Shown piece by piece: positions 1,456 through 54,731 of a DNA stretch of 64,000 nucleotides. Each line of letters starts with the position of its first letter. Positions within the stretch are counted from its first letter, which is position 1. Under the pieces are notes generated by a model, which saw only the letters and a program-made list of their open reading frames with translations, made no database searches and had not been told where the DNA came from. Origin of the DNA: Actinomycetales bacterium (GTDB taxonomy: Bacteria; Actinomycetota; Actinomycetes; S36-B12; UBA5976); contig JAIXQF010000004.1 in the NCBI GenBank assembly GCA_027484085.1, positions 1,768 through 65,767 on the forward strand, in the 5' to 3' direction. The position numbers and the translations under genes were made by a program.

Positions 1456-3242
1456 GCTTCGCGTGGTCTTTCATCAATCACTTGGCCACCAAGCGAGCTA
1501 GTGATGATGTCAATCGATGATCGTGATGGTGTGGTCTCGTCATCTGGCGAAGCTTCACCTGCATCGGTTGCTGCTTCTTTCTTTGGTGTTGCTGGCTTGG
1601 TACGATTTGGATCCACGGTTGGATCGATTCGAACATCAACATGGAACAGATTTTGAATCACTAGTCGTAAGCGATCGTCGTGACCACTCTTAACGGCGTT
1701 GTTCATGGTGTTTGAATTCGGGAACGCAACGGCCAAAACTTTATCTTCGCCGAACGAAACCGGAGCAGTTTCAGCCATGACAATTCCAGCTACCCGGCTT
1801 TGACCACCAACTGTTTGCAAGATCGCTGGCCACGCTTCGCGAATTTGCTCGAACGAAACTGGGCCAGTGAGTGTTTCAGTTGCCGCTACAGCTTGCTCTT
1901 CAGCTTTTTGTGTTGCAGCCGCTGTAACTTGTGATGGCTTCATTGGTGCTGGGGTAGTTGAAACTTTTGGTCGTGGCGGTGGAGTCTTTGCTGACACTGG
2001 TGCGGATTCGATTGGAGCTTCAGCTTGTTGCGTTACTGGCTGTTCTGCAGCGATTCGAGCTCGAGCAGGGATCGGGGCAGAACTTGAAACCCGAGGGCCG
2101 TCTTGTTCAAGTTTCTCTACGCGAGCAATCAAGTCTTGGGTGACTTCATTTGTGACCAATCGAGCCGCGAGAAGTTCCAATTGAAGTTTTGGTGAGGCTG
2201 CACCGCGTAGCTCAGACAAACCTGAACTGACTAAGTCAGCGACTCTAACTAGTTGGGCTGAAGTGAAAAGTTTGGCTTGGCTAACAAGGTCTTCGATTTG
2301 TTCATTAGGAATGTCGAATAATCCAGAAGTTGCTGCATCCGGAACTTGAGTAACTACAACTAAATCGCGCAGGTGATCAAGTAAGTCGTTTGCAAAGCGA
2401 CGAGGTTCGTGGCCTGAAGAAACTACTTGTTCAATCAAAGTAAAGAGAGTGGCTCCATCACCATTCGCAATTGCAACAACGACTTGGCTTAAGAGAGTTT
2501 CGTCGGTGAATCCAAGTTGTGCCACGGTGTCTGCATAGGTGACGCCTTCTGGGCCAGAACCTGCAATCACTTGACCAAGGACAGATTGGGCATCGCGAAC
2601 TGAGCCCGCTCCGGCACGAGCAACCAAGGCCAGCGCGGCTGGGTCAGCGGAGATGCCTTCACGTTCACACATCAACGCCATATGTTGCGCCAAAGTTTTA
2701 GCCGAAACTAAACGGAATGGGTAGTGATGTGTGCGGGAACGAAGAGTCGGAATGATTTTGTCTGGTTCAGTTGTAGCAAAAATAAATCGTAGATGTGGCG
2801 GTGGTTCTTCAACTAGCTTAAGTAGCACGTTGAATGCGTCTCGGGTTAACTGATGAGCCTCATCGATGATGTAAACCTTGAACCGTGCTTGAACTGGAGC
2901 ATAAACCGCGCGCTCTCGTAATTCTTTAGCGTCATCAATGCCACGATAAGTTGCAGCATCAATTTCAATAACATCGATTGAGCCCGGACCGTTTGGTGCC
3001 AAGTCCACACATGATTGGCAAACGCCACACGGATTCGAAGTTGGTCCTTGTTCGCAGTTCATCGAGCGAGCCATGATGCGAGCTGATGAAGTCTTGCCAC
3101 AACCACGTGGTCCAGTGAATAGATATGCGTGATGGATTCGATCGCTATCCAAAGCTCGTGAAAGTGGGGCCGTGACGTGTTCTTGCCCGATTACGTCAGA
3201 AAACTGACCAGGTCGGTACTTTCGGTAAAGAGCCAAGGACAT
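1452..3242 (-). CDS. dnaX: DNA polymerase III subunit gamma/tau
   Basis: The track ORF starts at GTG 3266. I prefer ATG 3242 ([14 protein letters not shown], the canonical DnaX N-terminus). Walker [10 protein letters not shown], Zn module [24 protein letters not shown] box, Pro/Ala-rich tau linker and C-terminal domain. Confidence 0.93.
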
Positions 3243-3286
3243 ATGTATGAGAGTAGTCGGTAGCACTGACTGGCATTAAGGACACT

Positions 3287-3301
3287 GCGGAGGATAGGGG
3301 A
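3287..3301. repeat. 15-nt duplicate of the 3' end of tRNA-Ser(GGA) (gcggaggatagggga)
   Basis: Exact 15-mer also at 3389-3403, where it forms the T-stem/acceptor 3' end of the tRNA gene. The copies are 102 bp apart. Confidence 0.7.
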
Positions 3302-3352
3302 CTCCGTCGAGGCAAACCCTCTCCTCCTCAAATCGCAGCATCATTGCTGTAA

Positions 3353-3385
3353 AGACAAAACGCCCCTTTCGGGGCGCTTCGTTTT
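3353..3385 (-). terminator. Rho-independent terminator downstream of tRNA-Ser(GGA)
   Basis: Reverse strand reads aaaacgaag-CGCCCC-gaaa-GGGGCG-TTTTgtcttt: a 6-bp GC stem, tetraloop and T-tract. Confidence 0.5.
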
Positions 3386-3389
3386 ACAG

Positions 3390-3474
3390 CGGAGGATAGG
3401 GGATTTGAACCCCTGAGGGCTTTCACCCAACTCGCTTTCCAAGCGAGCGCCATAGGCCACTAGGCGAATCCTCC
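3390..3474 (-). tRNA. tRNA-Ser (anticodon GGA)
   Basis: Reverse complement is GGAGGATTCGCCTAGTGGCCTATGGCGCTCGCTTGGAAAGCGAGTTGGGTGAAAGCCCTCAGGGGTTCAAATCCCCTATCCTCCG. It has a 7-bp acceptor, anticodon stem CTCGC/GCGAG with loop TTGGAAA, a long variable arm and a TTCAAAT T-loop. CCA is not encoded. Confidence 0.9.
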
Positions 3475-3559
3475 GTTGTCGAGATTACCCGTAATTGATG
3501 CATCAGCGCTAATTGCTCGGTTTTGGGTAGGAAGCATTATTTGTGCGAGAGAATCAACT

Positions 3560-4345
3560 ATGAAAATTGGATTCCTTGGTGTTGGCACAGTATCGACTGC
3601 AGTAATTGAGGCCATGGCCTCTCGAGGCGGTTCCCAGGAAACCATCTACCTATCCCCTCGTGGCGAAAAGCGATCTATCGAATTGGCCGCCAAATTTGAT
3701 CACTGCATTCGACTTGATTCGAATCAAGCGGTCATCGATGCCAGCGACATGGTCGTCCTCAGCATGCTGCCTAACCAAGTTGATGAAGCTCTGGCAGATC
3801 TGAAGTTCCGCGACGACCAAATCATTGCGAGTTTTATTGCCGGAACTCCGCCAAGTGGAATTGCAAAACTGACTGCACCGGCCACCCAAGTTAGTCAACT
3901 GATTCCCTTGCCACCAATTGTTCATCACAAGGGACCACTCGTTATTTGCCCATCACATCCAGATGTAGTTCGAGAGTTTGCTGGACTTGGTGACATCGTG
4001 ATTTTGGAAGACGAATCCCAGATTCGAATTCTCAGTGTTACCTCAGCAGTTATGTCAACATACTTCACATTTCAAAACACTGTTATGAAATGGACCGAAG
4101 CGAATGGCATTGCGCACGACACCGCTTCAAAATATGTGCGTTCCTTACTTGAAGGTCTGGCTATTGAAGGTCAGGCAGCAACCGATGAAGAAGTGGCCCA
4201 CTTGCCGGTGGAACATGAAACTCCAGGTGGGCTGAATTTCCGTAACCGAACCGGCCTAGAACAAGCAGGGTGGTTTGATTCGCTTTACAACCAACTGCAA
4301 GATACATATTCAAATGCCAATTTGAAGGCGAAATCGAGCGAGTAA
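3560..4345 (+). CDS. NADP-dependent oxidoreductase, pyrroline-5-carboxylate reductase-like
   Basis: The track ORF starts at 3476 and overlaps the tRNA. ATG 3560 gives MKIGFLGVGTVSTAVIEAM (Rossmann GxGxxS/G). A C-terminal HETPGGLN resembles the P5CR SPGGTT motif. Confidence 0.6.
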   Translation: MKIGFLGVGTVSTAVIEAMASRGGSQETIYLSPRGEKRSIELAAKFDHCIRLDSNQAVIDASDMVVLSMLPNQVDEALADLKFRDDQIIASFIAGTPPSGIAKLTAPATQVSQLIPLPPIVHHKGPLVICPSHPDVVREFAGLGDIVILEDESQIRILSVTSAVMSTYFTFQNTVMKWTEANGIAHDTASKYVRSLLEGLAIEGQAATDEEVAHLPVEHETPGGLNFRNRTGLEQAGWFDSLYNQLQDTYSNANLKAKSSE

Positions 4346-17005: not shown

Positions 17006-17587
17006 ATGACTTCACTTTCGAAATTAACCCGAATCCTTGGCTCGGTTCTATTGGTAGGCCTAGGAACACTGCTTCCTATGACGGCAGCAAACGCCCATAC
17101 CGATTTAGTGAACACCACACCTGTTGCTGACTCTGACGTTCTAGCTTCCGAACCCATTATTTCCCTTACGTTTGCCGAGCCAGTTTTAGTTGATGGCGCC
17201 GCGATTGTTGTGTTGAATTCAGCCGGTGACACACTGAATACTCCAACCCCAACGCTTGAGGGTGCAACTATCTCAATTCCTTGGCCAGTTGATCTAACGC
17301 CTGGTCAAGTTACGGTTCAATGGCGAGCTACCGGCCAAGATGGTCACGTGCTGACTGGTGAATTTGGTTTCAATTACACCGCAGCAGCCGAAGGTGGCAT
17401 GGCACCGAATCCAACAAATAGTGCAGTACCAACTGAGTCAGAAGCTACTGCCACACCTGAAACAGTTGCGATGCCACTTGGAGCCGAAGATTCAGCTGCT
17501 GGAAGTAACAACCTTGTAATCGGAATTGCGATCGTGTCCTTAGTAGGACTTGTGGCAGCAGGTATGTTCCTTCGACGTAGTAAGTAA
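17006..17587 (+). CDS. CopC-domain copper-binding protein, exported with C-terminal membrane anchor
   Basis: 193 aa. Signal peptide ending ANA followed by HTDLVNTTP (mature N-terminal His, typical of CopC/YobA) and a C-terminal TM helix. Confidence 0.8.
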
Positions 17588-17594
17588 GGCTTCT

Positions 17595-19544
17595 ATGAAG
17601 AGTGTTATTGCAAGACTAGGAATCTTCCTGCTTGCAATATCCTCTTTCTCTGCTGTTCTTATCTATGGCGGCGCTGCTTGGGCTCCACTTCCGGACGGCA
17701 TTCCTGATTCAGGTCAGGCCACAAGTTGGACTTTGCAACTCGCAGTCCTGGCGCATGTGGTGCTCGGGCTTCGAGTTTTTGGATTGCTTGTGACCTGGAC
17801 CTTTATCGCACCAACTTCCAGTGAAACAATCTCGCGTGAAGGTCGTTCGGCAATCTTGTACGCAAGTGCGATCGCTGGACTATGGTCGTTCTCTGCGATT
17901 GTTGCTGGCTTAGCAACGATGGCAAATGTCTTGGGTGTTCCATTAAAGGAAGTCTTTCGCCAAGGATTTATTGCAACGTACTTGATGTCTCTTCCACCTT
18001 CTCGAAGTTACATAATCACAGCGCTCATAGCATTGGCGATTGCAGCAGCTGGTATTTTCTTAGTTTCCCTTAACTCAATTGCACTCTTAGCTGCTTTGGC
18101 TGGTGCTGGTATCGCATCGCCACTTTTGAATAGTCATGCCGCATCACTTGGAAGTCACTCCTTAGCAATAACTACATCAGTTGCACATGGCTTGGCAATG
18201 AGTGCCTGGGTGGGCTGCCTGTGGGCTGTTTCGAGTTTTGTAAAAGGTAAGGATCTTAAGGTTGTGGCTCGCTTTTCGGCACTTGCTGCAACCAGCGTTG
18301 GCGTGCTTGCTATTTCAGGAGTTGCCGCTGCATATGCGCGACTCGATTCAATCAGCGATCTTTGGCTTAGTCGCTACGGACAAATCACTGTTTTGAAGGT
18401 TGTATTCTTCGCGATCCTAATGATCCTGGCTATTCAAATCCGAGCCCGACTAACTTCAACAGGCAGTCTGAAAAAGTTCTTGTCACTGGAAATCTCAATT
18501 ATGGCTATCGCTATCGGTGTTGGCGTAGCCCTTCATTCCACCCCAATGAGCCGCGAATCAGCGCCATTTAATTCCGCTGGTGAGGAAATCCTTGGTTTTG
18601 CATATCCGCCACCGCCAACCATTTCTACAGTCATCCTTGGTTGGAATCCGGAATGGTTTATGTTGACCGCAAGTTTGGTTGCCGCATCTCTTTACTCATT
18701 TGGTTTGATTCGTCTCAATCAAAATCAAATCAAGTGGAGCGCGTTGCGCACAATTTCCTTCATGGTCGGAATTGGTTTAGTTATTTGGACTACTAATGCT
18801 GGAATCAGCATGTATTCAAAGGTGTCTTTTGAGTACCACATGATTCAGCACATGACTCTTTCCATGATTGCTCCCATTTTCATTACCCTGGGAACACCGA
18901 TAACTTTGGCACTTCGCGCTCTCCCAGCTCAGAAAACTTCTGAACATAGAAGTATTCGGGAATGGATTTTAGCTTTGCTCCACAGTGGTTATTCAAACCT
19001 AATAACTCATCCACTAATGGTTTTGGCAATCTTTACATTTGGTTTGTATGGCATGTACTTCACTCCGCTGTTTGCCACATTAATGGGGAGTCACACTGGA
19101 CACATCTTTATGGAGCTTCACTTCTTGATTTCGGGTCTGTTGTTCTCGTACGTTGTAATTGGCGCAGATCCAAGTCCTCGCAAAGTTCCGTATTGGGCCA
19201 GGCTCATGATCGTGTTGGTAGGACTTTCGCTTCATGCCTTCTTTGCAATTGCAATCATGCAGTCGAGTGAACCAATCGGTGTTGACTGGTACATCCAAGT
19301 GCAGCCACCCTGGATTACAGATCTGATTGCAGATACAACAGCTGGTGGCAGCATTGCCTGGGCACTAGGTGAGATTCCGACTTTCTTACTTCTAGTGATT
19401 GTGGCTGTGATGTGGTCGCGTAGCGATACCCGATTGGCCAAACAGCTAGATCGCGCTGCGGATCGTGATGGGGATGCGGAACTAAAGGCGTATAACGCAC
19501 AGCTAAGTGAATTGAACAGCAGAGACAATTCGACTAACGAATAA
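17595..19544 (+). CDS. CopD / cytochrome-c-oxidase-assembly CtaG-like fusion membrane protein
   Basis: ATG 17595 is preferred over the track start 17550, which overlaps copC. About 650 aa polytopic protein. The N-terminal half is CopD-like, the C-terminal half caa3-CtaG-like (HMIQHMTLSMIAP). Confidence 0.78.
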   Translation: MKSVIARLGIFLLAISSFSAVLIYGGAAWAPLPDGIPDSGQATSWTLQLAVLAHVVLGLRVFGLLVTWTFIAPTSSETISREGRSAILYASAIAGLWSFSAIVAGLATMANVLGVPLKEVFRQGFIATYLMSLPPSRSYIITALIALAIAAAGIFLVSLNSIALLAALAGAGIASPLLNSHAASLGSHSLAITTSVAHGLAMSAWVGCLWAVSSFVKGKDLKVVARFSALAATSVGVLAISGVAAAYARLDSISDLWLSRYGQITVLKVVFFAILMILAIQIRARLTSTGSLKKFLSLEISIMAIAIGVGVALHSTPMSRESAPFNSAGEEILGFAYPPPPTISTVILGWNPEWFMLTASLVAASLYSFGLIRLNQNQIKWSALRTISFMVGIGLVIWTTNAGISMYSKVSFEYHMIQHMTLSMIAPIFITLGTPITLALRALPAQKTSEHRSIREWILALLHSGYSNLITHPLMVLAIFTFGLYGMYFTPLFATLMGSHTGHIFMELHFLISGLLFSYVVIGADPSPRKVPYWARLMIVLVGLSLHAFFAIAIMQSSEPIGVDWYIQVQPPWITDLIADTTAGGSIAWALGEIPTFLLLVIVAVMWSRSDTRLAKQLDRAADRDGDAELKAYNAQLSELNSRDNSTNE

Positions 19545-20360: not shown

Positions 20361-21887
20361 CTAGATATCTAGAACTAACGTTGATCCAGTGCCACGCGAA
20401 ACGCATGGGTACATGACACCAATTGCATCCTTATCCTCGTCACTCATGACGGAATCGAGATGCACGGGCTGTCCTTTGAGAACCCGAACTTCGCAGGTGC
20501 CGCAAACTCCTTCACCACACGAGGAAATCAAGGCGCCACCGTTTTCATTCAGAGCTTCAAGTAAGGACTGATCCTTTCCAACTGAGACGGTTACATTAGA
20601 GCGGGAAAGCGTAACGTCAAACGCTTCCACGATTGCATTATCACTTCGATCAACTGCGCTGAACCGCTCATAGTGAAGGCGCTCTGCTGGCACTCTTGAG
20701 ATCAAAGCATCAAGTAGTGGCTCAGGTCCACAAACATAAACATGTCCATTGAACCCAACAAGTAATGCATCTAGATCTGCGCGGCCACCCTGCTCATCGT
20801 CGGCATGAATGATCACTCGATCGCCAAACATTTCTCGAAGTTCATTCGTGTAAGCCATCGTGGCGCGAGACCGACCTGCATAAAGTAGTCGCCATTGCCG
20901 TCGACTTGGTAATGATTCAATCATTGCCTTGATTGGCGTAATCCCAATTCCACCAGCAATAAATAGGTATTCACTGGAAGCTTCGAGTTCAAAGTGATTG
21001 TGCGGTCCCGAGACATCAATTGTCATTCCGGCTTTCAGGTTGTTATGAACATAGCGACTTCCACCTCGAGACTCAGGTGATTCCAAAACTGCGATTGAGT
21101 ATTGGGAGCGATCGGCTGGATCCCCACACAAGGAATACTGTCGCTTCATGCCATCAGGTAAATGTAAAGTTACGTGAGCTCCCGGCACCCAAGGATCCAA
21201 ATTGGATCGGTCTGGAAGGACAAAATTAAAACCTAGAATTCCTTCGGCCAACGGAGTAACGGTATCCACTACAACGCTGTGCAAATTCTCTGAGTTTTGA
21301 TTCGCCCTACGACCCTCAACTGTGGCCGATAACGTTTTTGCAGATTTAGGGAAGAGAATTCTTACAATCAAAGCAACGGTTGTCAGAGTAATCAGAGTGA
21401 GTGCGGTGATCCGATAAGCCCAGGCCCGAACATCAGTGCCCGACCATCCCGCATGGAATGAAACTAGTAACACCAATGCGTAACTTGAATAGTGAATTGC
21501 CTTCCAATATTTTCGAGGCAGCTTTTTCATCATCAATGACGTAGTCTGCACTGCGATCAAAATGTATGTGCAAATAACACCAAGTGCAATTGGCCAGCCA
21601 CCTAGCCAGGCAATCTTTTGGTATTGCGAATGAAACGGAATGAACAAGTCTTGCAAAGTAAACGCCGCGTACTCGTCAATGAAAAGCGAAACCATGTGAA
21701 TTCCGACAAACACAACTGATAATCCCGAAAGCCATCTGTGTAGATCCAGTAGCCAACTTGGGTTGTCTTTTGGTTTCATCACACGAGTTGCTAGCAGAAT
21801 TCCCCAAGTCACACTAATGACCATCAAGGCCCAAGCAATGATTGCGCTAGCTCGTGTTACGTACCACCAAATTGCTGGATCTAACAT
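20361..21887 (-). CDS. Fusion of a ferric-reductase/MsrQ-like haem-b TM domain, a PDR-type flavin/NAD reductase and a plant-type 2Fe-2S ferredoxin
   Basis: The N-terminal ~180 aa form 6 TM helices with paired His (HRWLSG, GIHM, HYSSY, SFHAG). Then RQYSL flavin motif, GGIGITP NAD motif and C-terminal CGEGVCGTCE...C. The track start TTG 21902 is possible, but I prefer ATG 21887 (MLDPAIWWYV), which aligns with the paralog at 25938. Confidence 0.8.
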   Translation of the reverse strand: MLDPAIWWYVTRASAIIAWALMVISVTWGILLATRVMKPKDNPSWLLDLHRWLSGLSVVFVGIHMVSLFIDEYAAFTLQDLFIPFHSQYQKIAWLGGWPIALGVICTYILIAVQTTSLMMKKLPRKYWKAIHYSSYALVLLVSFHAGWSGTDVRAWAYRITALTLITLTTVALIVRILFPKSAKTLSATVEGRRANQNSENLHSVVVDTVTPLAEGILGFNFVLPDRSNLDPWVPGAHVTLHLPDGMKRQYSLCGDPADRSQYSIAVLESPESRGGSRYVHNNLKAGMTIDVSGPHNHFELEASSEYLFIAGGIGITPIKAMIESLPSRRQWRLLYAGRSRATMAYTNELREMFGDRVIIHADDEQGGRADLDALLVGFNGHVYVCGPEPLLDALISRVPAERLHYERFSAVDRSDNAIVEAFDVTLSRSNVTVSVGKDQSLLEALNENGGALISSCGEGVCGTCEVRVLKGQPVHLDSVMSDEDKDAIGVMYPCVSRGTGSTLVLDI

Positions 21888-22750
21888 GAATATCTTTCCC
21901 AATTCTTTGAAGTGTGAACTTGATTCGTACTGTCAACAATTAGGGCAGCAACTCCTAAGGAATCAATCCGCGTAATTCCCTCGTGTGCTCCCAAGATAAC
22001 GCACATTTTTGCTAGAACTTCCGCCTGAGCAGCATTCTGAGAAATTACTGTCGCCTGTAGAACATCTGATTCTGAACTTCTATGTGTTCGAGGATCAATA
22101 ATGTGATGCGCGCTACCGCTTTTCCATCCCATTGGACTAGAGGTGGCTAATCCGCCGCGGCTTAATGAAACAGAACTAATGAATCTGTCAGCATCCGCTG
22201 GATCAGAGATGTTTACTTTCCATCCCGCAGCACCAGATGCCATACCCTTTACCGCCACGTCTCCACCTGCAAATACAGCAACGCCCATAGCTCCGAGTTG
22301 CATTGCGTAATCGCTCATTAAATCTGCTGCAAGGCCTTTCCCAATTCCGCCGGCATCAAGTGCAACGCCGCGTGGGACGCGAACTGACTTTGCATCTAGA
22401 TCAATCTCGACATCAGATAAGTTTGCGGACGTTTTTGCTTTTGTAGTCCAGTTAGTTACATTTTCTGCATTAGAACGACTTCTTGCAAAGCCCAAATCAA
22501 TCATCTCGCCAAGGATGTTGCCACTGTAAAGACCTTGAGTCAGTTCAAATCCCAACTTCATCTCACTGACAAGTCGAAGTGTCGCATCACTGACTTGGTG
22601 CAATGAGTCAGGGTTGTTGTTTAGTCGCATAACTTCTGAATCAGGAATAAATCGAGACCATTTACTCTCGAGCTCAATCGCAAGAGCATAGATGGCATCA
22701 CAGATGGATTTGTCAGCTTCAACTAACAAGCAAAAGAAACTTGTTCCCAT
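21881..22750 (-). CDS. apbE: FAD:protein FMN transferase (ApbE family), no signal peptide
   Basis: 289 aa. AMGT-type N-terminus, SRFIPDSEVMRLN, LDAGGIGKGLAAD, FAGGDV, GLATSS, HHIIDPRT, AAQAEVLAK. The in-frame stretch between the upstream TAA and ATG 22750 has no ATG/GTG/TTG/CTG, so no longer form with a signal peptide is possible. Confidence 0.88.
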   Translation of the reverse strand: MGTSFFCLLVEADKSICDAIYALAIELESKWSRFIPDSEVMRLNNNPDSLHQVSDATLRLVSEMKLGFELTQGLYSGNILGEMIDLGFARSRSNAENVTNWTTKAKTSANLSDVEIDLDAKSVRVPRGVALDAGGIGKGLAADLMSDYAMQLGAMGVAVFAGGDVAVKGMASGAAGWKVNISDPADADRFISSVSLSRGGLATSSPMGWKSGSAHHIIDPRTHRSSESDVLQATVISQNAAQAEVLAKMCVILGAHEGITRIDSLGVAALIVDSTNQVHTSKNWERYSC

Positions 22751-22815
22751 CGCATCGAAATCAATGCGTTGAGTTACTCCTGTCGCCGAACTCCCGATGG
22801 TAATTATGTTCTCGA

Positions 22816-23292
22816 CTAAACCTGGGTAAGTACGTATCCGTACTTAGCATTTTTACATTGACCAGTTGCGGTTGGGTTCTCGGTCTTGCCACCCGGAGAC
22901 ATACAGGTGTAAACAACCGAAGCAGTTGGTGCTGAAGGTGCTGCTGCAGGAGTTTTCGTAGCTGTTGGTGCTACCGGTGTAGCAGGTGCCACAGTCGCAG
23001 CCGTGGGACTGCCCGGTTTCGTAGGAGCGGCTTGAGTAGTCGGAGCAATTGTTGCCGATGGTGTTACTTGCGTTACCGAACTACTTGGCATAGTGGTAAC
23101 CGGTACTAGATTTCCATTTGCATCTGTGCTTGTTGGTTGGATTGGCACGCCGCTTGAATCAACTACATTTGCAACTAGCTCGGCTTGATGCGTGTTCCAA
23201 GCAAAGCTGGTGACCACGCTAACAAATGCAGTAGTGGAGATCCCAAGCGTTGCAATTCTTGCGCGGCGGGCTGGGTGAGGATTTCGTTTCAT
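22816..23292 (-). CDS. Membrane-tethered mini-protein A: RR-containing signal anchor, Pro/Thr/Ala-rich linker and conserved C-terminal CX15C motif
   Basis: 158 aa. MKRNPHPARRARIATLGISTTAFVSVVTSF, about 90 aa low-complexity linker, then VVYTCMSPGGKTENPTATGQCKNAKYGYVLTQV. Paralog at 26510..27034. TAAtcATG coupling to the upstream gene. Confidence 0.6.
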   Translation of the reverse strand: MKRNPHPARRARIATLGISTTAFVSVVTSFAWNTHQAELVANVVDSSGVPIQPTSTDANGNLVPVTTMPSSSVTQVTPSATIAPTTQAAPTKPGSPTAATVAPATPVAPTATKTPAAAPSAPTASVVYTCMSPGGKTENPTATGQCKNAKYGYVLTQV

Positions 23293-23294
23293 GA

Positions 23295-23717
23295 TTAATC
23301 ATCATCCTCATCTTCATACTCATCGTCTTCATCATCGTCTTCATCAGCGTCTTCATCATCGTCTTCATCGTCGTCTTCATCCTCTTCACCATTGGAGGGA
23401 TTCGGGTTGTCATAAACCACGTTTGGATTGGCAGGATCGACGATTGTGCCGACAGCTGGGGTGTTCGGATCTACTGCCGGTTGTGTAGCAGCCGTTCCAT
23501 CACTGGAAATCGGAGTTTCAGCAGTCCCTGGCACAACAGCATCAGACTGTGGTGTCTCCACAGCCACCATGTCGGTGGGAGGCAGCAAACTTGTGGTTGC
23601 GGTTCCAACTGTAGATTTTGTCGGTGTAATGAGCGCCTGGGTATTAATGGCAGCAGCTGCGGTGCCAGTAAGCAAAACAGCGGATAGTGCGAGGCTGGTG
23701 CTAAATTTTGATTTCAT
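23295..23717 (-). CDS. Exported protein with a 30-residue poly-Asp/Glu C-terminal tail
   Basis: 140 aa. Signal peptide MKSKFSTSLALSAVLLTGTAAAA, Pro/Thr/Ala-rich middle, tail GEEDEDDDEDDDEDADEDDDEDDEYEDEDDD. Confidence 0.62.
   Translation of the reverse strand: MKSKFSTSLALSAVLLTGTAAAAINTQALITPTKSTVGTATTSLLPPTDMVAVETPQSDAVVPGTAETPISSDGTAATQPAVDPNTPAVGTIVDPANPNVVYDNPNPSNGEEDEDDDEDDDEDADEDDDEDDEYEDEDDD
23321..23380. repeat. Five tandem 12-bp units (consensus catcgtcttcat) encoding the acidic tail
   Basis: catcgtcttcat / catcgtcttcat / cagcgtcttcat / catcgtcttcat / cgtcgtcttcat read directly. In frame, one unit is 4 codons. Confidence 0.85.
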
Positions 23718-23762
23718 GTCTCAAAACTAGCTATTGGATTCCCTAGTTTGAGTCGGTGTTTA

Positions 23763-23781
23763 TCCAAGAAATAGCCAAGAA
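23763..23781. promoter_or_regulatory. Candidate OmpR-family response-regulator box (direct repeat ccaagaaa, 11-bp period)
   Basis: ccaagaaa at 23763-23770 and 23774-23781, in the 111-bp divergent region between the acidic-tail operon and the response regulator gene. A degenerate look-alike ccaataaa/ccaaaaga lies at 27134-27151, upstream of the second module. Confidence 0.25.
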
Positions 23782-23828
23782 AGGCTTTGCGGTAGGAATC
23801 GGCCCAAAAACCCGAGAAAATAGACATT

Positions 23829-24506
23829 ATGCGTATTCTGCTGGTTGAAGACGACCCTTCCGTGGCTGCCAGTGTTATTGATGGATTGGTAAATGCCAAC
23901 TTAGAAGTTGAACATGTATCAACGGGCAGTGATGCGATTTCGAAAGCGCTGGCCCAAGACTTCGACCTGATACTTCTTGATCTTGGGCTTCCAGATATGG
24001 ATGGACAAGATGTTTGTCGTTCCGTGCGCGAAACCTCAACAACGCCGATCATAGTTTTGTCTGCGCGAAGTGAAGAGATAGACCGAGTTCTGGCTTTGGA
24101 ATTTGGAGCGGACGATTACATGGTTAAGCCATTTGGGATGCGTGAACTTGTCGCGCGCATCCGAGCCGTTGCCAGACGAGTAAGTCCTACCGAATCGGGT
24201 CCAGTTGCTGCAACTCAGAATATCGGCGCGTTAAGTATCGATCGACGTTCTCAGAAAGTCTTCATTAATGGCGAGGATGTTTATCTCACTCCTAAAGAAT
24301 TCGATTTGCTCGCATATTTAGCAACAGATCCTGGTGCGGTTTACCGACGCAATGACATCATGAATGAAGTTTGGGATACCAATTGGTACGGGACTACAAA
24401 AACTGTTGATGCACATGTGGCAGCCCTCCGAAAAAAACTTGGTAACCAGGACTGGATCGAAGCAGTAAGAGGCGTTGGATTCAGGTTGGGAGATCCCAAC
24501 TCGTGA
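23829..24506 (+). CDS. OmpR/PhoB-family response regulator
   Basis: 225 aa. MRILLVEDD, phospho-acceptor LILLDLGLPDMDG, winged-helix C-terminus (LTPKEFDLLAYL...VRGVGFRL). Confidence 0.93.
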   Translation: MRILLVEDDPSVAASVIDGLVNANLEVEHVSTGSDAISKALAQDFDLILLDLGLPDMDGQDVCRSVRETSTTPIIVLSARSEEIDRVLALEFGADDYMVKPFGMRELVARIRAVARRVSPTESGPVAATQNIGALSIDRRSQKVFINGEDVYLTPKEFDLLAYLATDPGAVYRRNDIMNEVWDTNWYGTTKTVDAHVAALRKKLGNQDWIEAVRGVGFRLGDPNS

Positions 24507-25888
24507 AATGGAGATTGGTAGCAGCGCTGCTTTCTCTGACAATTGTTGTTTTGGCTGTGCAGGATATTCCGTTAGTTCAGTACTTGCGCACGGTAGAGAC
24601 AGATCGCATCACCACAGCTCTAGAGCGAGATAGTTTTGTTATTGCAGGTCGTGCAGAGGAAACTCTTGAATCCCCGACCCCGGCAGGAATTGATTTTGTT
24701 CAAACTGCAATCACGAAATACAGCGGTGAAAGCGGCGCTCGTGTTGTTGTCGTGGACATTAACGGAGTCGCCATTGCGGACTCGGATTCTCAGGACGCAA
24801 TTGGGACCTCGTTCTTTAGTAGACCTGAAGTCGCAGAAGCACTTAACGGTTCAGTCTCGATAGGTAGACGATTTTCTACTACCGCGAACCAAGAGCTTCT
24901 ATTTGTAGCCGTTCCGATTCTGAATGGCCCTAATACCCTTGGCGCAGTAAGAATCACATTTCCAGCATCTGTAGTGGATGAGGCTGTAAATCAAAGAATT
25001 CGTGGCATCAGTTCGGTTGCTGGTATCGCATTGATCGTTTCGGTACTTGTTGCACTGGTACTCGCGCTTGGAATTACTCGGCGTTTGTCAGATCTAAAAA
25101 ATGTGACGGATGAATTCACCGAGGGTAACTACAAAGTACGTGCAGAAATTGACAGTGGCGCTCCGGAGATTCGTTCGCTGGCCAATAGCTTTAACGGCAT
25201 GGCTCAAAAGCTGGATAAATTGATCACGCAACAGAAAGCTTTTGCTGGCGATGCATCACATCAACTTCGAACCCCTTTAACGGCATTGCAACTTCGACTA
25301 GAGCGTGCAGCAGAACTTCTGGAAACAGATCCTGCGGGAGCTGCTGAGCGAATTGAAGCAGCGATAGCAGAAGCTGATCGCCTCCAGAGATTAGTTGAAG
25401 GACTACTTGCGCTTAGTAGATCTGAAAATGCAGACTCAATCGCGCGAATCAAATGCGATGCTGCACAGATTGCTAGGGAAAGATTTCAAAGCTGGGAAGC
25501 ACTTGCCGATGAGCAGGATGTTGAACTTGTCCTTAATGTCCCCGAAGCAGCAATGATCTTGGCTATTCCTGGAACCTTGGAGCAAATCATAGATAACTAT
25601 GTCGATAACGCATTGGCTGTTGTTCCTGCTAACTCAAAAATCTGCATTGAAGTTACAGCCGGGGTTGAGTTAACCAAAATTTCCGTGCTCGATGAAGGCC
25701 CCGGTATTCCAGAATCTGACCTTGCTAAAGCCTTCAATCGATTTTGGAGAGCGCGTAGCGACTCCGATGGTTCAGGTTTAGGTCTGGCAATTGTTGATCA
25801 GTTAGCAACGTCGAGTGGCGGTAGGGCTGAAGTCGTGAATCGGACTCCTCATGGCCTAAGCGCAGACGCATACTTCCCTACTGCTTAA
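24503..25888 (+). CDS. Sensor histidine kinase (2 TM, ~150-aa extracytoplasmic sensor, HAMP, HisKA, HATPase)
   Basis: 461 aa. GTGA overlap with the regulator. H-box FAGDASHQLRTPL, N-box DNYVDNAL, G-boxes LDEGPGI and GSGLGLAIV. Confidence 0.9.
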   Translation: MKWRLVAALLSLTIVVLAVQDIPLVQYLRTVETDRITTALERDSFVIAGRAEETLESPTPAGIDFVQTAITKYSGESGARVVVVDINGVAIADSDSQDAIGTSFFSRPEVAEALNGSVSIGRRFSTTANQELLFVAVPILNGPNTLGAVRITFPASVVDEAVNQRIRGISSVAGIALIVSVLVALVLALGITRRLSDLKNVTDEFTEGNYKVRAEIDSGAPEIRSLANSFNGMAQKLDKLITQQKAFAGDASHQLRTPLTALQLRLERAAELLETDPAGAAERIEAAIAEADRLQRLVEGLLALSRSENADSIARIKCDAAQIARERFQSWEALADEQDVELVLNVPEAAMILAIPGTLEQIIDNYVDNALAVVPANSKICIEVTAGVELTKISVLDEGPGIPESDLAKAFNRFWRARSDSDGSGLGLAIVDQLATSSGGRAEVVNRTPHGLSADAYFPTA

Positions 25889-25937
25889 CGCGATTTCCGC
25901 ACTATAACTTCTTTCCTGCTTGAGGAATTGAAAAAGG

Positions 25938-26507
25938 TCAGCGCTTTTTGACTCTAGTAGCCCTTAATCGGACGATAACGGCAACGATTGTTAACAGAAT
26001 TAGTGAAATTCCAATCGCTCTATATATCCAATTGCTTGCATCCGTACCAGTCCAGCCCGCATGAGCAGAAACCAGAAGTACCAGCAGATAACTTGAGTAG
26101 TGAACTGCTTTCCACGCTCTGGTTGTCATCTTCTGGCGGAATAAGGAAGTTAGTTGCACTGCAAAAAGGATGTGAAGCGACAAGACACCAAACGCTATTG
26201 GAAATCGACCTAGTGACGGATTCTTTACATAATCCGAGTGAAATGGCACAGCGATATCCAGAACAGTAAACGTTACAAAGCTATCTAACATCAAAGAAGT
26301 AATGTGGGTTACTGCAAAGACAAATGTTAAGCCAGACAACCAATTATGAAAATGAAACAACCAACTTGGACTATCGTTTGGCTTTAAGACTCGAGTCGAA
26401 AGCAAGATTCCAATTACAACTGCGACCACAAGTAAACTCCACGCAACAATTCCACTAGCGCGACTTACAAACCACCAGATGGCAGGCGTATCTAGTTGCA
26501 AGTTCAT
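25938..26507 (-). CDS. Ferric-reductase/MsrQ-like haem-b membrane protein (TM domain only)
   Basis: Aligns along its length with the N-terminal domain of 20361..21887 (LDTPAIWWFVSRASGIVAW / HNWLSGL / HYSSYLLVLLVSAHAGWTGTD). ATG 26507 follows the upstream stop as TAGtcATG. The track start 26537 is also possible. Confidence 0.8.
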   Translation of the reverse strand: MNLQLDTPAIWWFVSRASGIVAWSLLVVAVVIGILLSTRVLKPNDSPSWLFHFHNWLSGLTFVFAVTHITSLMLDSFVTFTVLDIAVPFHSDYVKNPSLGRFPIAFGVLSLHILFAVQLTSLFRQKMTTRAWKAVHYSSYLLVLLVSAHAGWTGTDASNWIYRAIGISLILLTIVAVIVRLRATRVKKR

Positions 26508-26509
26508 GA

Positions 26510-27034
26510 CTAAACCAAGGTGAGGACGTATCCCCATTTAGTTGGACAGCTCGGTGTGCCGCCTGGCTCTCGAGTATTTCCCCCAGGGGACATACAGGTG
26601 TAAACAAGCACAGGTTCTTCTGGCGCAACATTTTCAACATCTGGCGAAACGGGTATCGACGGGCTTGCCGGTTGTACTCCACTGGTCAACGTTGGTGAAG
26701 GGTTGACAACAGGCGCTGCTGATTTTGTTGGGCTTGCACTTGGTTGAGTATTGGTGGCTAGAGAAGCATCATCATCAACAGATGGAGCAGAGGAAGGAGA
26801 AGAACCCAAAGTTGGCAATTGTGCCACTGGGGATTCGGTAACAGAAATCGGGTTTTGGGTGACTAGAACTTCTGGGGCCAGAGGCAGGTTTTCCCCTGCG
26901 AATTTCACACTCTTATCTGGTGAAAGATCTTGTGATTCCGAAATGAATCCGGAGACCATTGTCACGAAGGCTGCAGCGCTCACACCGGTTGCCACCAGAC
27001 GGCTTCGCAATGCGGGCTTGAATCGCAACTTCAC
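26510..27034 (-). CDS. Membrane-tethered mini-protein B (paralog of 22816..23292)
   Basis: GTG 27034 is preceded by GGAG at 8-nt spacing and gives MKLRFKPALRSRLVATGVSAAAFVTMVSGF, parallel to MKRNPHPARRARIATLGISTTAF of A. Ser/Pro-rich linker, C-terminus VLVYTCMSPGGNTREPGGTPSCPTKWGYVLTLV. Confidence 0.6.
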   Translation of the reverse strand: MKLRFKPALRSRLVATGVSAAAFVTMVSGFISESQDLSPDKSVKFAGENLPLAPEVLVTQNPISVTESPVAQLPTLGSSPSSAPSVDDDASLATNTQPSASPTKSAAPVVNPSPTLTSGVQPASPSIPVSPDVENVAPEEPVLVYTCMSPGGNTREPGGTPSCPTKWGYVLTLV

Positions 27035-27195
27035 AGTCAAAACTCCAGATGATGCACGCGAGGGTATCTGCGTGGGTAACTAAATTCTAAATGAGCAAAT
27101 AGTCCGCGCAATTGCTGGTAATCCTTTGTTATTCCAATAAACGCCAAAAGAAGTGAATATTTAGCGTAACTATTTAATGTTTAACAAAAGTTCAT

Positions 27196-52964: not shown

Positions 52965-54731
52965 ATGAAGTTAACTTATCGTTTGATTGTTTCTACCTTT
53001 GCGATGATTTTGCTTCTTGCTGGTCAAAGTACTGTCTCCTACGCGCAAGACATGGAGCGAATTGAAGAGTTCGTAATTGATGTCGACGTAAGAGCCAACG
53101 GTGATGTGCAGATTGTTGAAACGATTACATATGACTTCGGCGATCTTGAGAGACATGGAATCTTCCGCGAGTTACCAATCAGAGACAAACTAGATTCTGG
53201 TGATTTCTGGGCGCACCCAATTGAAGTTAATTCGGTAACTCGCAATAGCGATGCTGAAATGTATTCTGAAAATCAAGATGGCTATTGGACATCATTAATG
53301 ATTGGTGACCCAAATGTATTTGTCTCTGGACTTCAAATCTACAAAATCAATTACACAGTAAGTGGTGCTCTTTTCCCGCTTGCCGAGAAAGACATCACTA
53401 AATATCCCAATTTGAAAGCAGGGGACGTCAGCTTTTATTGGGATGTAATTGGCAACAGCTGGCAAGTTCCAATCGAACGCGTGATTGTCAGCGTTAACTT
53501 GCCCTCAACGAACAGCTCATTAGTATTGGCCGAAAACTGCACATTTGGCATCCCAGGTAGCGATTCACAATGCTCGTCACTTAGCTCCCGTCGAGCCTGG
53601 GCATCTAATAGGGCACTGCAGCCCGGTGAATCGATGACTATTTCGATGCAGATGAGTCCAGCATTGTTTGAAGTAGAAATTCTCCAAGTCATTGATCAAG
53701 GCCCCATAGAAGTTTTTTCAGGTGCGTGGATTGCAGCGGCAAAACTGTACCTGCTTCTCGGTTGCGTATTTGGAGTAGCAATTTTTGGCACCATTATTTT
53801 GTTTTGGCGCAGGCGACTTAGCCGATTGAACAACAACAGGGTTCTCGAGGTGGTGCGCTTTGACCCACCTTCAGGTCATGTGGCTGAGATATCCGCGGCT
53901 TGGAAGGGATCGGTTGATGCCAGAGCAATCACAGCCACTTTGGTTGATCTGGCGGCTCGTGGCGTAGTCGAAATTCAAGTAAACGAGGAAAACAACTTAG
54001 TGGTCAAACAAAAAGAATTTGAACTAGACCTTAAAAACTACGAACAAGATCTCCTAAAGACTTTGTTCAGAAGTTCTAGTCAGGTCACAATCGAGGGCTA
54101 CGATGCAGAACTTTCAGGTGTTGCTGAAACAATTTCGAAAAACCTAGTAAAGATTGCAGAAGACTCTGGAGTTCGCAATGTTTCTGGATCTCGTTCACGA
54201 AATTCATTTGTTATCGGTTTACTACTGAGCGCCTTCTTCCTCGCATTCAGTGTTGTCACCCTTGGATCGCCAAAAATATTTGGCTTGTTATTTCCGATTG
54301 CGCTTGCAATGTTTATTGGATTCTTGCTAGCAACAGTCAGAACACCACGAGTTGAGACTGCTGAATCTGCTGAGTTCTTGTCGCATTTACTTGGATTTAG
54401 GAAAGCCATGGATACAGAAGCGGGTGCTTTGCGCAGAAAGTTTGCTCAGGAATCTGGATTAGCTCCAGGAAACATCTTTGCCACGTTGCTACCTCTAGCA
54501 ATTATTCTCGAGCTAGAAGATTCCTGGCTAGCAAATTTTGTTGACCTGACCCTTAATGAGATCTCGTCCACAGGGATTCAAGTAAGTTCGATTTCCAGTT
54601 TGCAACATTCAATTCGCCAAAGCCAACAGGTCTTATTGGACGCCATGACTTCTCCAACCTCGTCCGGTTCTGGAGCTAGTGGTGGAAGTTCTGGTGGTGG
54701 AGGCGGAGGTGGTGGAGGTCGAAGTTGGTAG
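52965..54731 (+). CDS. DUF2207-family membrane protein
   Basis: 588 aa. Signal peptide, ~230-aa extracytoplasmic beta-rich domain, TM helices, cytoplasmic loop, characteristic Gly-rich tail SGSGASGGSSGGGGGGGGGRSW. Confidence 0.75.
   Translation: MKLTYRLIVSTFAMILLLAGQSTVSYAQDMERIEEFVIDVDVRANGDVQIVETITYDFGDLERHGIFRELPIRDKLDSGDFWAHPIEVNSVTRNSDAEMYSENQDGYWTSLMIGDPNVFVSGLQIYKINYTVSGALFPLAEKDITKYPNLKAGDVSFYWDVIGNSWQVPIERVIVSVNLPSTNSSLVLAENCTFGIPGSDSQCSSLSSRRAWASNRALQPGESMTISMQMSPALFEVEILQVIDQGPIEVFSGAWIAAAKLYLLLGCVFGVAIFGTIILFWRRRLSRLNNNRVLEVVRFDPPSGHVAEISAAWKGSVDARAITATLVDLAARGVVEIQVNEENNLVVKQKEFELDLKNYEQDLLKTLFRSSSQVTIEGYDAELSGVAETISKNLVKIAEDSGVRNVSGSRSRNSFVIGLLLSAFFLAFSVVTLGSPKIFGLLFPIALAMFIGFLLATVRTPRVETAESAEFLSHLLGFRKAMDTEAGALRRKFAQESGLAPGNIFATLLPLAIILELEDSWLANFVDLTLNEISSTGIQVSSISSLQHSIRQSQQVLLDAMTSPTSSGSGASGGSSGGGGGGGGGRSW

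Follow-up and report, generated by a model that had tools for sequence, protein, structure and literature searches.

Why should a bacterium encode two small membrane-anchored proteins with the same conserved C-terminal peptide, each of them close to a gene for a di-haem membrane protein? The question is raised by a 64-kb stretch of DNA from an Actinomycetales bacterium (contig JAIXQF010000004.1), the whole of which is called the window below, and which encodes two such proteins, A and B. Protein A belongs to an operon whose other genes specify a secreted protein (gene 1), a flavin adenine dinucleotide (FAD):protein flavin mononucleotide (FMN) transferase of the ApbE family and a 513-amino acid (aa) fusion of a di-haem membrane domain with a reductase; B is accompanied by a separate di-haem membrane protein (Table 1). 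We find that A and B form a real, selected but narrow family, and that they belong, as its Nanopelagicales-type representatives, to a wider and undescribed family of bitopic proteins. Their C-terminal unit, here called the knob, we take, with slightly better than even confidence, to be the extracytoplasmic acceptor head of an MsrQ-like electron-transfer system.

A Conserved Knob on a Variable Tether

Both proteins end in YTCMSPGG-x-T-x2-P-x5-C-x4/5-GYVLT, with 20 of 34 positions identical and the differences lying mainly in the loop; the last residues are …GYVLTQV in A and …GYVLTLV in B. A six-frame scan found exactly two copies of this motif in the window, those of A and B. The gene for B had been listed as an open reading frame (ORF) opening with TTG (26510-27040, minus strand). 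The first residue of its homologs corresponds to the GTG at 27034, which has a GGAG 8 nucleotides (nt) upstream, and because both observations favour this codon we place the start there, yielding a protein of 174 aa.

Using only the last 44 residues of A as a query, we retrieved 134 clusters (at 90% identity) with an A-type knob, all from freshwater metagenomes or actinobacterial metagenome-assembled genomes (MAGs) and none with a Pfam domain. The same search done for B gave five B-type clusters. Homologs with conserved Cys therefore exist beyond the source genome, where an earlier note, made from the sequence of the window alone, had allowed for a recent duplication within it. Across 65 distinct knob sequences the invariant pattern is Y-T-C-x-S-P-G-G…P…C…G-Y-x-L-T, and the Met that follows the first Cys is replaced by Lys, Ile or Trp in some lineages. 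The two Cys, 16 positions apart in both A and B (C-x15-C), are themselves invariant, but the exact spacing that the earlier note had stressed is nearly, not strictly, so, as one B-type representative has C-x14-C.

Among 113 full-length A-type homologs, in which the tether varies in length (whole proteins of 131-193 aa), the knob is the best conserved part (mean column conservation 0.91), followed by the N-terminal anchor (0.85) and the linker (0.62). The earlier description is supported in that A and B are paralogs anchored by their N-termini and carry a small, conserved terminal unit on a divergent Pro/Thr/Ser/Ala tether. That this unit is folded is a confident prediction of AlphaFold2, which gives the isolated knob of A a predicted local distance difference test score (pLDDT) of 88.7, with strands at YTCM and VLTQ and one helical turn. 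In the model of full-length A, a long N-terminal anchor helix (pLDDT 77-85) is followed by the tether (45-60) and the knob (87-91). The positive-inside rule, the Pro/Thr-rich tether and the paired Cys would place the knob outside the membrane, where it is probably stapled by a disulfide. Several A-type tethers (P0083, P0126, L025) contain Lys-rich runs (KKKKKAKAA); electrostatic pairing of such a tether with the poly-acidic tail of the co-encoded gene-1 protein is conceivable.

As had been supposed, the knob corresponds to no named domain. Searches of A and B against Pfam-A (hmmscan, E up to 1) and NCBIfam returned low-complexity noise, with no family and no FMN_bind domain (PF04205), and a Foldseek comparison of the knob model with the PDB gave no match below E = 5. 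Known copper-binding modules (HMA MxCxxC, CusF, CopC, PCuAC) were likewise sought in A and B, which have no Pfam match to them, no CxxC and no conserved His or Met. An exhaustive profile search of 1.84 billion representatives yielded 13 matches, namely 11 members of the family and two marginal repeat proteins. This search ruled out that the knob is a disguised part of a larger known domain. When one genome of each of 185,579 species was scanned, only five loci from four species were found, labelled as Candidatus Nanopelagicales or Actinomycetota MAGs. Judging from these sequence searches, the knob is confined to a few Nanopelagicales-like freshwater lineages.

Transcription of the operon receives weak but positive support. 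Freshwater metatranscriptome contigs with 90-100% identity cover pieces of it, including the knob end of A (22811-23042), and a contig of 408 nt spans the junction between gene 1 and A. The expression called for by the earlier note is thus seen for parts of the operon, but at low depth and with DNA carry-over possible.

Small Proteins and Haem Domains Travel Together

In 12 of the 12 related low-GC loci examined (L001-L006, L010-L013, L025, L039), the order gene 1-A-ApbE-fusion is the same as in the window, and gene-1 orthologs occupy the same position in L003-L006, L010-L013 and L039. In the loci compared, the genes for knob proteins consistently have PF01794-domain genes in their neighbourhood, as the earlier note had proposed to check. 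The membrane domain of the fusion is of this type, with four invariant His (55, 69, 137 and 150) that would ligate two b-haems. The membrane protein encoded beside B is 54% identical to this domain, keeps all four haem His, and its gene either overlaps that of B by 28 nt or, if M11 is used as the start, begins 2 nt after the B stop codon. The pair formed by B and the PF01794 gene also occurs in L005 and L007. Comparison of these sequences indicates that small protein and haem domain duplicate as a unit, which argues for a direct pairing between knob and cytochrome.

Relatives in High-GC Actinobacteria Carry a Tail Instead of a Knob

A tblastn search of plasmids with the fusion protein produced two full-length homologs, one on a Mycolicibacterium aubagnense plasmid from a mine and one on a plasmid of Streptomyces sp. 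NBC_00637 (L009), both in the same operon and with the same divergent two-component system. On the Streptomyces plasmid the operon is flanked by a heavy-metal P-type ATPase gene on one side and MerR-type/HMA genes on the other, and its gene-1 equivalents (2496-3781) are Met-rich (MGMDGM and MGMDGMNM repeats); these Met-rich proteins and heavy-metal neighbours link the system to copper. A metagenome scan with an alignment of the fusion gave 80 loci. Every full-length fusion homolog having upstream sequence is directly preceded by ApbE, and in the high-GC loci the fusion is 36-53% identical.

In these high-GC loci, the ORF directly upstream of ApbE encodes a protein of 100-140 aa with a basic N-terminus containing H-P-A…R, one transmembrane helix and an Ala/Pro tether. 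Such proteins were seen in L008, L009, L015-L035, L090 and L091, and some correspond to unannotated ORFs (3771-4115 in L009, 114 aa, ending …MTRSGGS; 3106-3381 in L091, 91 aa, ending …HARSAGS). They have no knob, and end instead in …NGTTAGSGG, …SGTTGGSGG, …NGTSGGSGG, …TGSTGGSGH, …AGSTGASGH or …VASTGASGG, or in …DATSSGS, …DGHTSAS, …TRSGGS, …TRSSGS, …VSKASGG or …SSGASSGASSSTASNGTSSGSK (L030). The C-terminal pattern [ST][GSA][GA]S(G[GH])? is present in 11 of 14 high-GC positional homologs, as against 0 of 995 other ORFs of at least 80 aa in the same loci. When the profiles of the knob family and the high-GC tail family were aligned (hhalign, A2 vs A5), 43 N-terminal columns matched (Prob 97.1%, E 6.8e-11); the anchors are therefore homologous, and A and B form the low-GC branch of this family.

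Two intermediate low-GC lineages have other Cys-pair ends (…AYTCISPTSGYHKKPKGQTCPSGYVLTQK in L025 and …SKTCWTPNHHKTKKC in L021). Common to all knob forms are T-C-x-[ST]-P and a second Cys, with the [ST]-x-x-[ST] spacing found in T-G-A-S-G. Clusters of another type also possess tail-type partners. On plasmids of Mycobacterium sp. JS623 (L090) and Rhodococcus qingshengii (L091), NuoF-type MsrQ-like clusters made up of ApbE, a PF01794 protein, a NuoF-like protein and a ferredoxin are found with DUF2231 neighbours, a divergent two-component system, a signal-less ApbE and a tail-type anchored protein (ending …TISHGS in L090 and …HARSAGS in L091); L090 alone has a VIT1 neighbour.

The gene-1 relatives of high-GC loci have D/E/H-rich tails, or Met-rich tails in Streptomyces-type loci, and some contain flavinylation-type motifs like those of the anchored partner (L029 1948-2667, L031 2161-2607, L030 2196-2660 and L015 2190-2660). 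For example, gene 1 of L029 has three VDATSGAS-type repeats, PVDATSSGS is found in both small proteins of L031, and VHGTSGGSGS in gene 1 of L015 compares with VNGTTAGSGG at the end of its partner. Both small proteins of high-GC loci may thus be substrates of one ApbE. In Nanopelagicales, gene 1 (…VVYGNPNP[ST]NG-acidic) and A (…VVYTCMSPGG…) have only VVY-x4-P in common, a likeness that is suggestive at best. In a partial survey around the high-GC loci, no conserved neighbour was seen beyond the core genes and the two-component system.

An ApbE without a Signal Peptide

The window ApbE has neither a signal peptide nor a lipobox, and orthologs with longer ORFs have a hydrophilic N-terminal extension (MNTNTDSVTPAQRIDFQAMGT…). 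In all lineages examined, no more than a few nt separate the ORF from the preceding stop codon, and the N-terminus that it specifies is hydrophilic. This leaves no room for a signal in the window or in L003, L005, L008, L009, L011, L013, L015-L035, L090 and L091, its absence being judged by eye. The catalytic HHIIDP is kept. The canonical Mg-site A-D-x-L-x-T (ADALST in TM1553, ADGLAT in Vibrio cholerae) reads A-E-V-L-A-K in the window, and A-E-[VA]-L-A-K is common to the window, Mycolicibacterium and Streptomyces copies (L008 4111-5019 and L009 4141-5064 share it). Full-length ApbE, 75-92% conserved, is found in more than 100 clusters of the streamlined lineage, and it must therefore still have a substrate. 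Among the matches listed, this homolog search returned close relatives only (at least 75% identity); the sister lineages came from the plasmid tblastn and the metagenome scan.

The published ApbE motif is [S/T]GA[S/T], which covers TGAS and SGAS (PMC8238504), and a 12-residue tag at a protein terminus is flavinylated by ApbE, also in the Escherichia coli cytoplasm (PMC9400968). Cytoplasmic ApbEs are known. That a short motif on a disordered tail could be modified before export is plausible. The earlier note had treated the missing [ST]GA[ST] site as setting A and B apart from flavin biology. The site is indeed missing, as a regex scan confirms, but the knob sits where its homologs carry a flavinylation-type motif beside a signal-less ApbE, so that the flavin link becomes the main lead instead of being excluded. 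We put the likelihood that the knob carries ApbE-attached FMN somewhat below even, and favour this modification to that extent because ApbE is retained, because the position is homologous and because the T-C-x-S-P spacing fits. One SGAS in the window was dismissed as a chance occurrence: it lies in the Gly/Ser-rich tail (…SGSGASGGSSGGGGGGGGGRSW) of an unrelated 588-aa membrane protein (52965-54731) that has no link to the operon.

A Possible Electron Exporter

The position and architecture of A, its homology to the tail-type proteins and the co-duplication of knob and cytochrome are the reasons for which we read the knob as an acceptor head. Under the corresponding scheme, NAD(P)H would be oxidised by the cytoplasmic PDR-type module of the fusion, and electrons would cross via its 2Fe-2S centre and then two b-haems to the outer face of the membrane; the B module might draw its electrons from menaquinol or from a separate reductase. 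At this outer face, the knob that the cognate small protein carries on its tether is expected to dock on the cytochrome, accept an electron and hand it on to an extracytoplasmic acceptor. The most likely acceptor would be a metal, Fe3+ or Cu2+, bound to the acidic tail of the gene-1 protein, which is placed outside by its Sec signal as the anchored proteins are by the positive-inside rule. The divergent two-component system would control both modules. The function of the system is likely to be inducible metal reduction, probably as a metal reductase, because of its copper and iron neighbours (heavy-metal genes in L009, VIT1 in L090 and CopC/CopD-CtaG in the window). As to the origin of the knob, the bare flavinylation tail of high-GC species would have been replaced by, or elaborated into, a 33-residue knob in the Nanopelagicales-type lineage.

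A more specific version of this proposal is tentative, and we hold it to be rather doubtful: the knob would be a disulfide-stapled mini-flavodomain of 33 residues, the smallest natural covalent flavin carrier, passing electrons from the outer haem to metal on the acidic-tail protein. The signal-less ApbE with its Glu/Lys site would esterify FMN to the Ser of T-C-x-S-P in the cytoplasm, the modified tail would thread through Sec unfolded, and outside the cell the disulfide would form and the conserved Tyr/Trp would stack on the flavin.

Several observations weigh against the knob as a flavin-bearing acceptor head. A regex scan of the window found neither [ST]GA[ST] nor a close variant in A, B or any operon protein, and the most conserved motif positions, Gly and Ala, would be Cys and Met in the knob. 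B has no ApbE of its own. Since ApbE lacks a signal in all lineages and its presumed substrates are predicted to lie outside, modification would have to precede Sec export, for which we found no experimental precedent in the literature. Glu and Lys in place of the Mg-binding Asp and Thr may point to an altered metal requirement or chemistry of ApbE. Finally, the fold of the knob was predicted from a shallow alignment and for a 36-residue peptide, and the metal acceptor is deduced only from neighbouring genes and low-complexity tails.

Alternative Explanations

Alternatively, the knob would be flavin-less and work through its two Cys, as the Cu(I)- or metal-binding head of a tethered metallochaperone or as a redox dithiol/disulfide. 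Metal would then be handed to or from the reductase and CopC/CopD, and ApbE would serve another substrate, either the gene-1 protein or a protein encoded elsewhere. In favour of this are the invariance of the two Cys, the lack of a flavinylation motif in the knob, a genomic context of copper and heavy-metal genes, and the gene-1 motifs of L029 (three of VDATSGAS type) and L031 (VDATSSGS), which suggest that ApbE may have non-anchored substrates. However, the knob has no His, and the Met beside the first Cys is not conserved (Lys, Ile or Trp elsewhere). Under aerobic conditions outside the cytoplasm, one would expect two Cys to form a structural disulfide, and haems, being one-electron donors, are ill suited to disulfide reduction. 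Moreover, the window gene-1 protein also lacks the canonical motif. We consider this explanation unlikely. It is improbable that the knob is a docking or plug subunit on the outer face of its MsrQ-like partner, concerned with assembly, stability or gating and carrying neither cofactor nor electrons. Such a role would suit a structured mini-domain that has no recognisable cofactor motif and whose gene was duplicated along with, and is translationally coupled to, that of a PF01794 protein of its own, but a fixed subunit has no need of a flexible tether of 90-110 residues, homologs elsewhere have only a flavinylation-type tail and nothing plug-like, and the retention of ApbE would go unexplained.

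Export through the twin-arginine translocation (Tat) pathway, which the earlier note had raised as a possibility, would provide for a knob that is redox-active or already loaded with a cofactor, and that has nothing to do with flavinylation. Tat logic would fit a protein that is modified by a cytoplasmic ApbE and exported afterwards, and A-type N-termini do contain R-R. This pair is followed by S/A-R-I rather than by a hydrophobic pair, and thus departs from the consensus; B has L-R-S-R, and no twin arginine occurs in the homologous anchors of the wider family (HPAAGAR, HPAESSRK and others). The Tat-like signal is thus not supported, and we regard this explanation as very improbable. Practically no weight is left for A and B being non-functional or mis-called ORFs that resemble each other through recent duplication. 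They match no database family, as such ORFs would, but more than 130 clusters show strong purifying selection on anchor and knob and not on the linker, and synteny is conserved and transcripts are found.

Comparison with Known Systems

MsrQ-like flavinylation-associated clusters combine apbE with genes for a small anchored extracytosolic partner and for a PF01794 di-haem protein that frequently includes a fused NAD-binding domain, and NAD(P)H-driven electron export, possibly with iron reduction, has been proposed as their function (Méheust et al. 2021, PMC8238504; Huang et al. 2024, 10.1101/2024.03.13.584918). The window resembles the clusters of this type in Actinobacteria, having a PF01794 protein, apbE and a small membrane-anchored partner, and it falls under the operational definition of Méheust et al. 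(PF01794 in a cluster with an apbE or FMN_bind gene). In contrast, it would not pass their filter for a signal peptide or lipobox on ApbE, as judged by eye. It also differs in its partner, which has a Cys knob of 33 residues and neither FMN_bind nor [S/T]GA[S/T], in its signal-less ApbE, in its PDR-type reductase with a C-terminal 2Fe-2S domain and in an additional module of knob protein and PF01794 protein that lacks ApbE.

Other close counterparts are the high-GC tail-type loci. A shares with their partners a homologous anchor, a disordered tether and a position directly upstream of apbE, and the loci have in common a secreted acidic or His-rich gene-1 protein and a divergent two-component system. 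Their partners end in [ST][GSA][GA]S(G[GH]) and have no folded unit, whereas A and B end in the Cys-pair knob and lack that motif. Like its counterparts in the tail family, the gene for A directly precedes a signal-less apbE that has an MsrQ-like gene after it, whereas B lies directly upstream of the PF01794 gene. The literature that we searched contains no description of tail-type ApbE substrates or of the knob.

Three further systems offer partial parallels. The engineered Flavin-tag (GVDGLSGATLTS, PMC9400968) shows a short terminal peptide to be sufficient for ApbE acting in the cytoplasm, but it is artificial and has the canonical motif, in place of which the knob has T-C-M-S-P-G-G-K-T. 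Listeria extracellular electron transfer (FmnB/PplA) and E. coli MsrPQ both supply, from across the membrane, an acceptor that is tethered or periplasmic, and MsrPQ with HprSR also provides a two-component system divergent beside an MsrQ-type operon. However, PplA has FMN_bind domains and is served by a secreted lipoprotein ApbE, E. coli MsrQ feeds a molybdoenzyme, and neither system has a knob or tail-type partner.

ApbE flavinylation as known so far is tied to folded acceptors (FMN_bind, NqrB/RnfD, DUF2271, DUF3570, Flavodoxin_4 and FMN_red) and to a secreted enzyme. The window and its relatives point to another design, in which a signal-less ApbE is associated with small anchored proteins whose terminal tag is the sole conserved functional element. 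New here is a lineage with, in place of the tag, a Cys-pair knob that is predicted to be folded and has been duplicated together with its cytochrome. If this is true, the substrate range and cell biology of flavinylation would extend to modification before export, and a set of "orphan" apbE genes would be explained. Some of the most numerous lake bacteria, the freshwater Nanopelagicales, would then possess an inducible system for electron export or metal reduction, and for protein labelling the knob would be of interest as a natural minimal scaffold.

Gene Context in the Window

The features discussed above are listed in Table 1 with their coordinates.

Table 1. Features of the 64-kb window around proteins A and B
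Feature	Position	Strand	Description
513-aa fusion	20361-21902	-	PF01794, PF00970 (FAD_binding_6), PF00175 (NAD_binding_1), PF00111
ApbE-family FAD:protein FMN transferase	21881-22750	-	289 aa; PF02424, E 2e-41
Protein A	22816-23292	-	158 aa; basic N-terminus H-P-A-R-R-x-R, one transmembrane helix, Pro/Thr/Ala/Ser tether of ~90 residues, knob
Knob of A (residues 125-158)	22819-22920	-	VVYTCMSPGGKTENPTATGQCKNAKYGYVLTQV
Gene 1	23295-23717	-	140 aa; Sec-type signal peptide, Pro/Thr spacer, VVY(D/G)NPNP(S/T)NG, Asp/Glu tail of ~30 residues
Direct repeat, upstream of gene 1	23760-23780	-	TCTTGGCTATT/TCTTGGATAA; read from sequence
OmpR-family response regulator	23829-24506	+	Divergent from operon
HAMP histidine kinase	24503-25888	+	With response regulator; between A and B modules
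PF01794-only di-haem membrane protein	25938-26537	-	199 aa; beside B
Protein B (paralog of A)	26510-27034	-	174 aa; anchor K-P-A-L-R-S-R, tether of ~110 residues, knob
Knob of B	26513-26611	-	LVYTCMSPGGNTREPGGTPSCPTKWGYVLTLV
Similar repeat, upstream of B	27129-27150		CTTTTGGCGTT/TATTGGAATAA; read from sequence

Gaps between gene 1, A, ApbE and the fusion are 2, 65 and ~0 nt, the fusion overlapping or abutting the ApbE stop codon. The gene-1 protein matches no Pfam family. In the fusion, an MsrQ/ferric-reductase-like di-haem membrane domain is followed by a PDR-type flavin/NAD(P)H reductase and a C-terminal 2Fe-2S ferredoxin. CopC (PF04234) and a CopD-Caa3_CtaG fusion are encoded at 17006-19544, convergent to the operon and separated from it only by a CN hydrolase gene, an arrangement kept in all related loci that extend far enough (L001-L005). 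The order that recurs in related contigs is folK-DUF3180-[B + PF01794, optional]-histidine kinase-response regulator / gene 1-A-ApbE-fusion-CN hydrolase / CopD/CtaG-CopC.

The divergent two-component pair stands beside the operon in Nanopelagicales loci as well as on the Mycolicibacterium, Streptomyces, Mycobacterium and Rhodococcus plasmids. Its typing was generic (OmpR/CreBC/CseBC/heavy-metal-like), with no match reaching a curated cut-off. The repeats that precede gene 1 and B are both of the TTGG-N6/7-TTGG type, and they may be candidate response-regulator sites, which would co-regulate the two modules.

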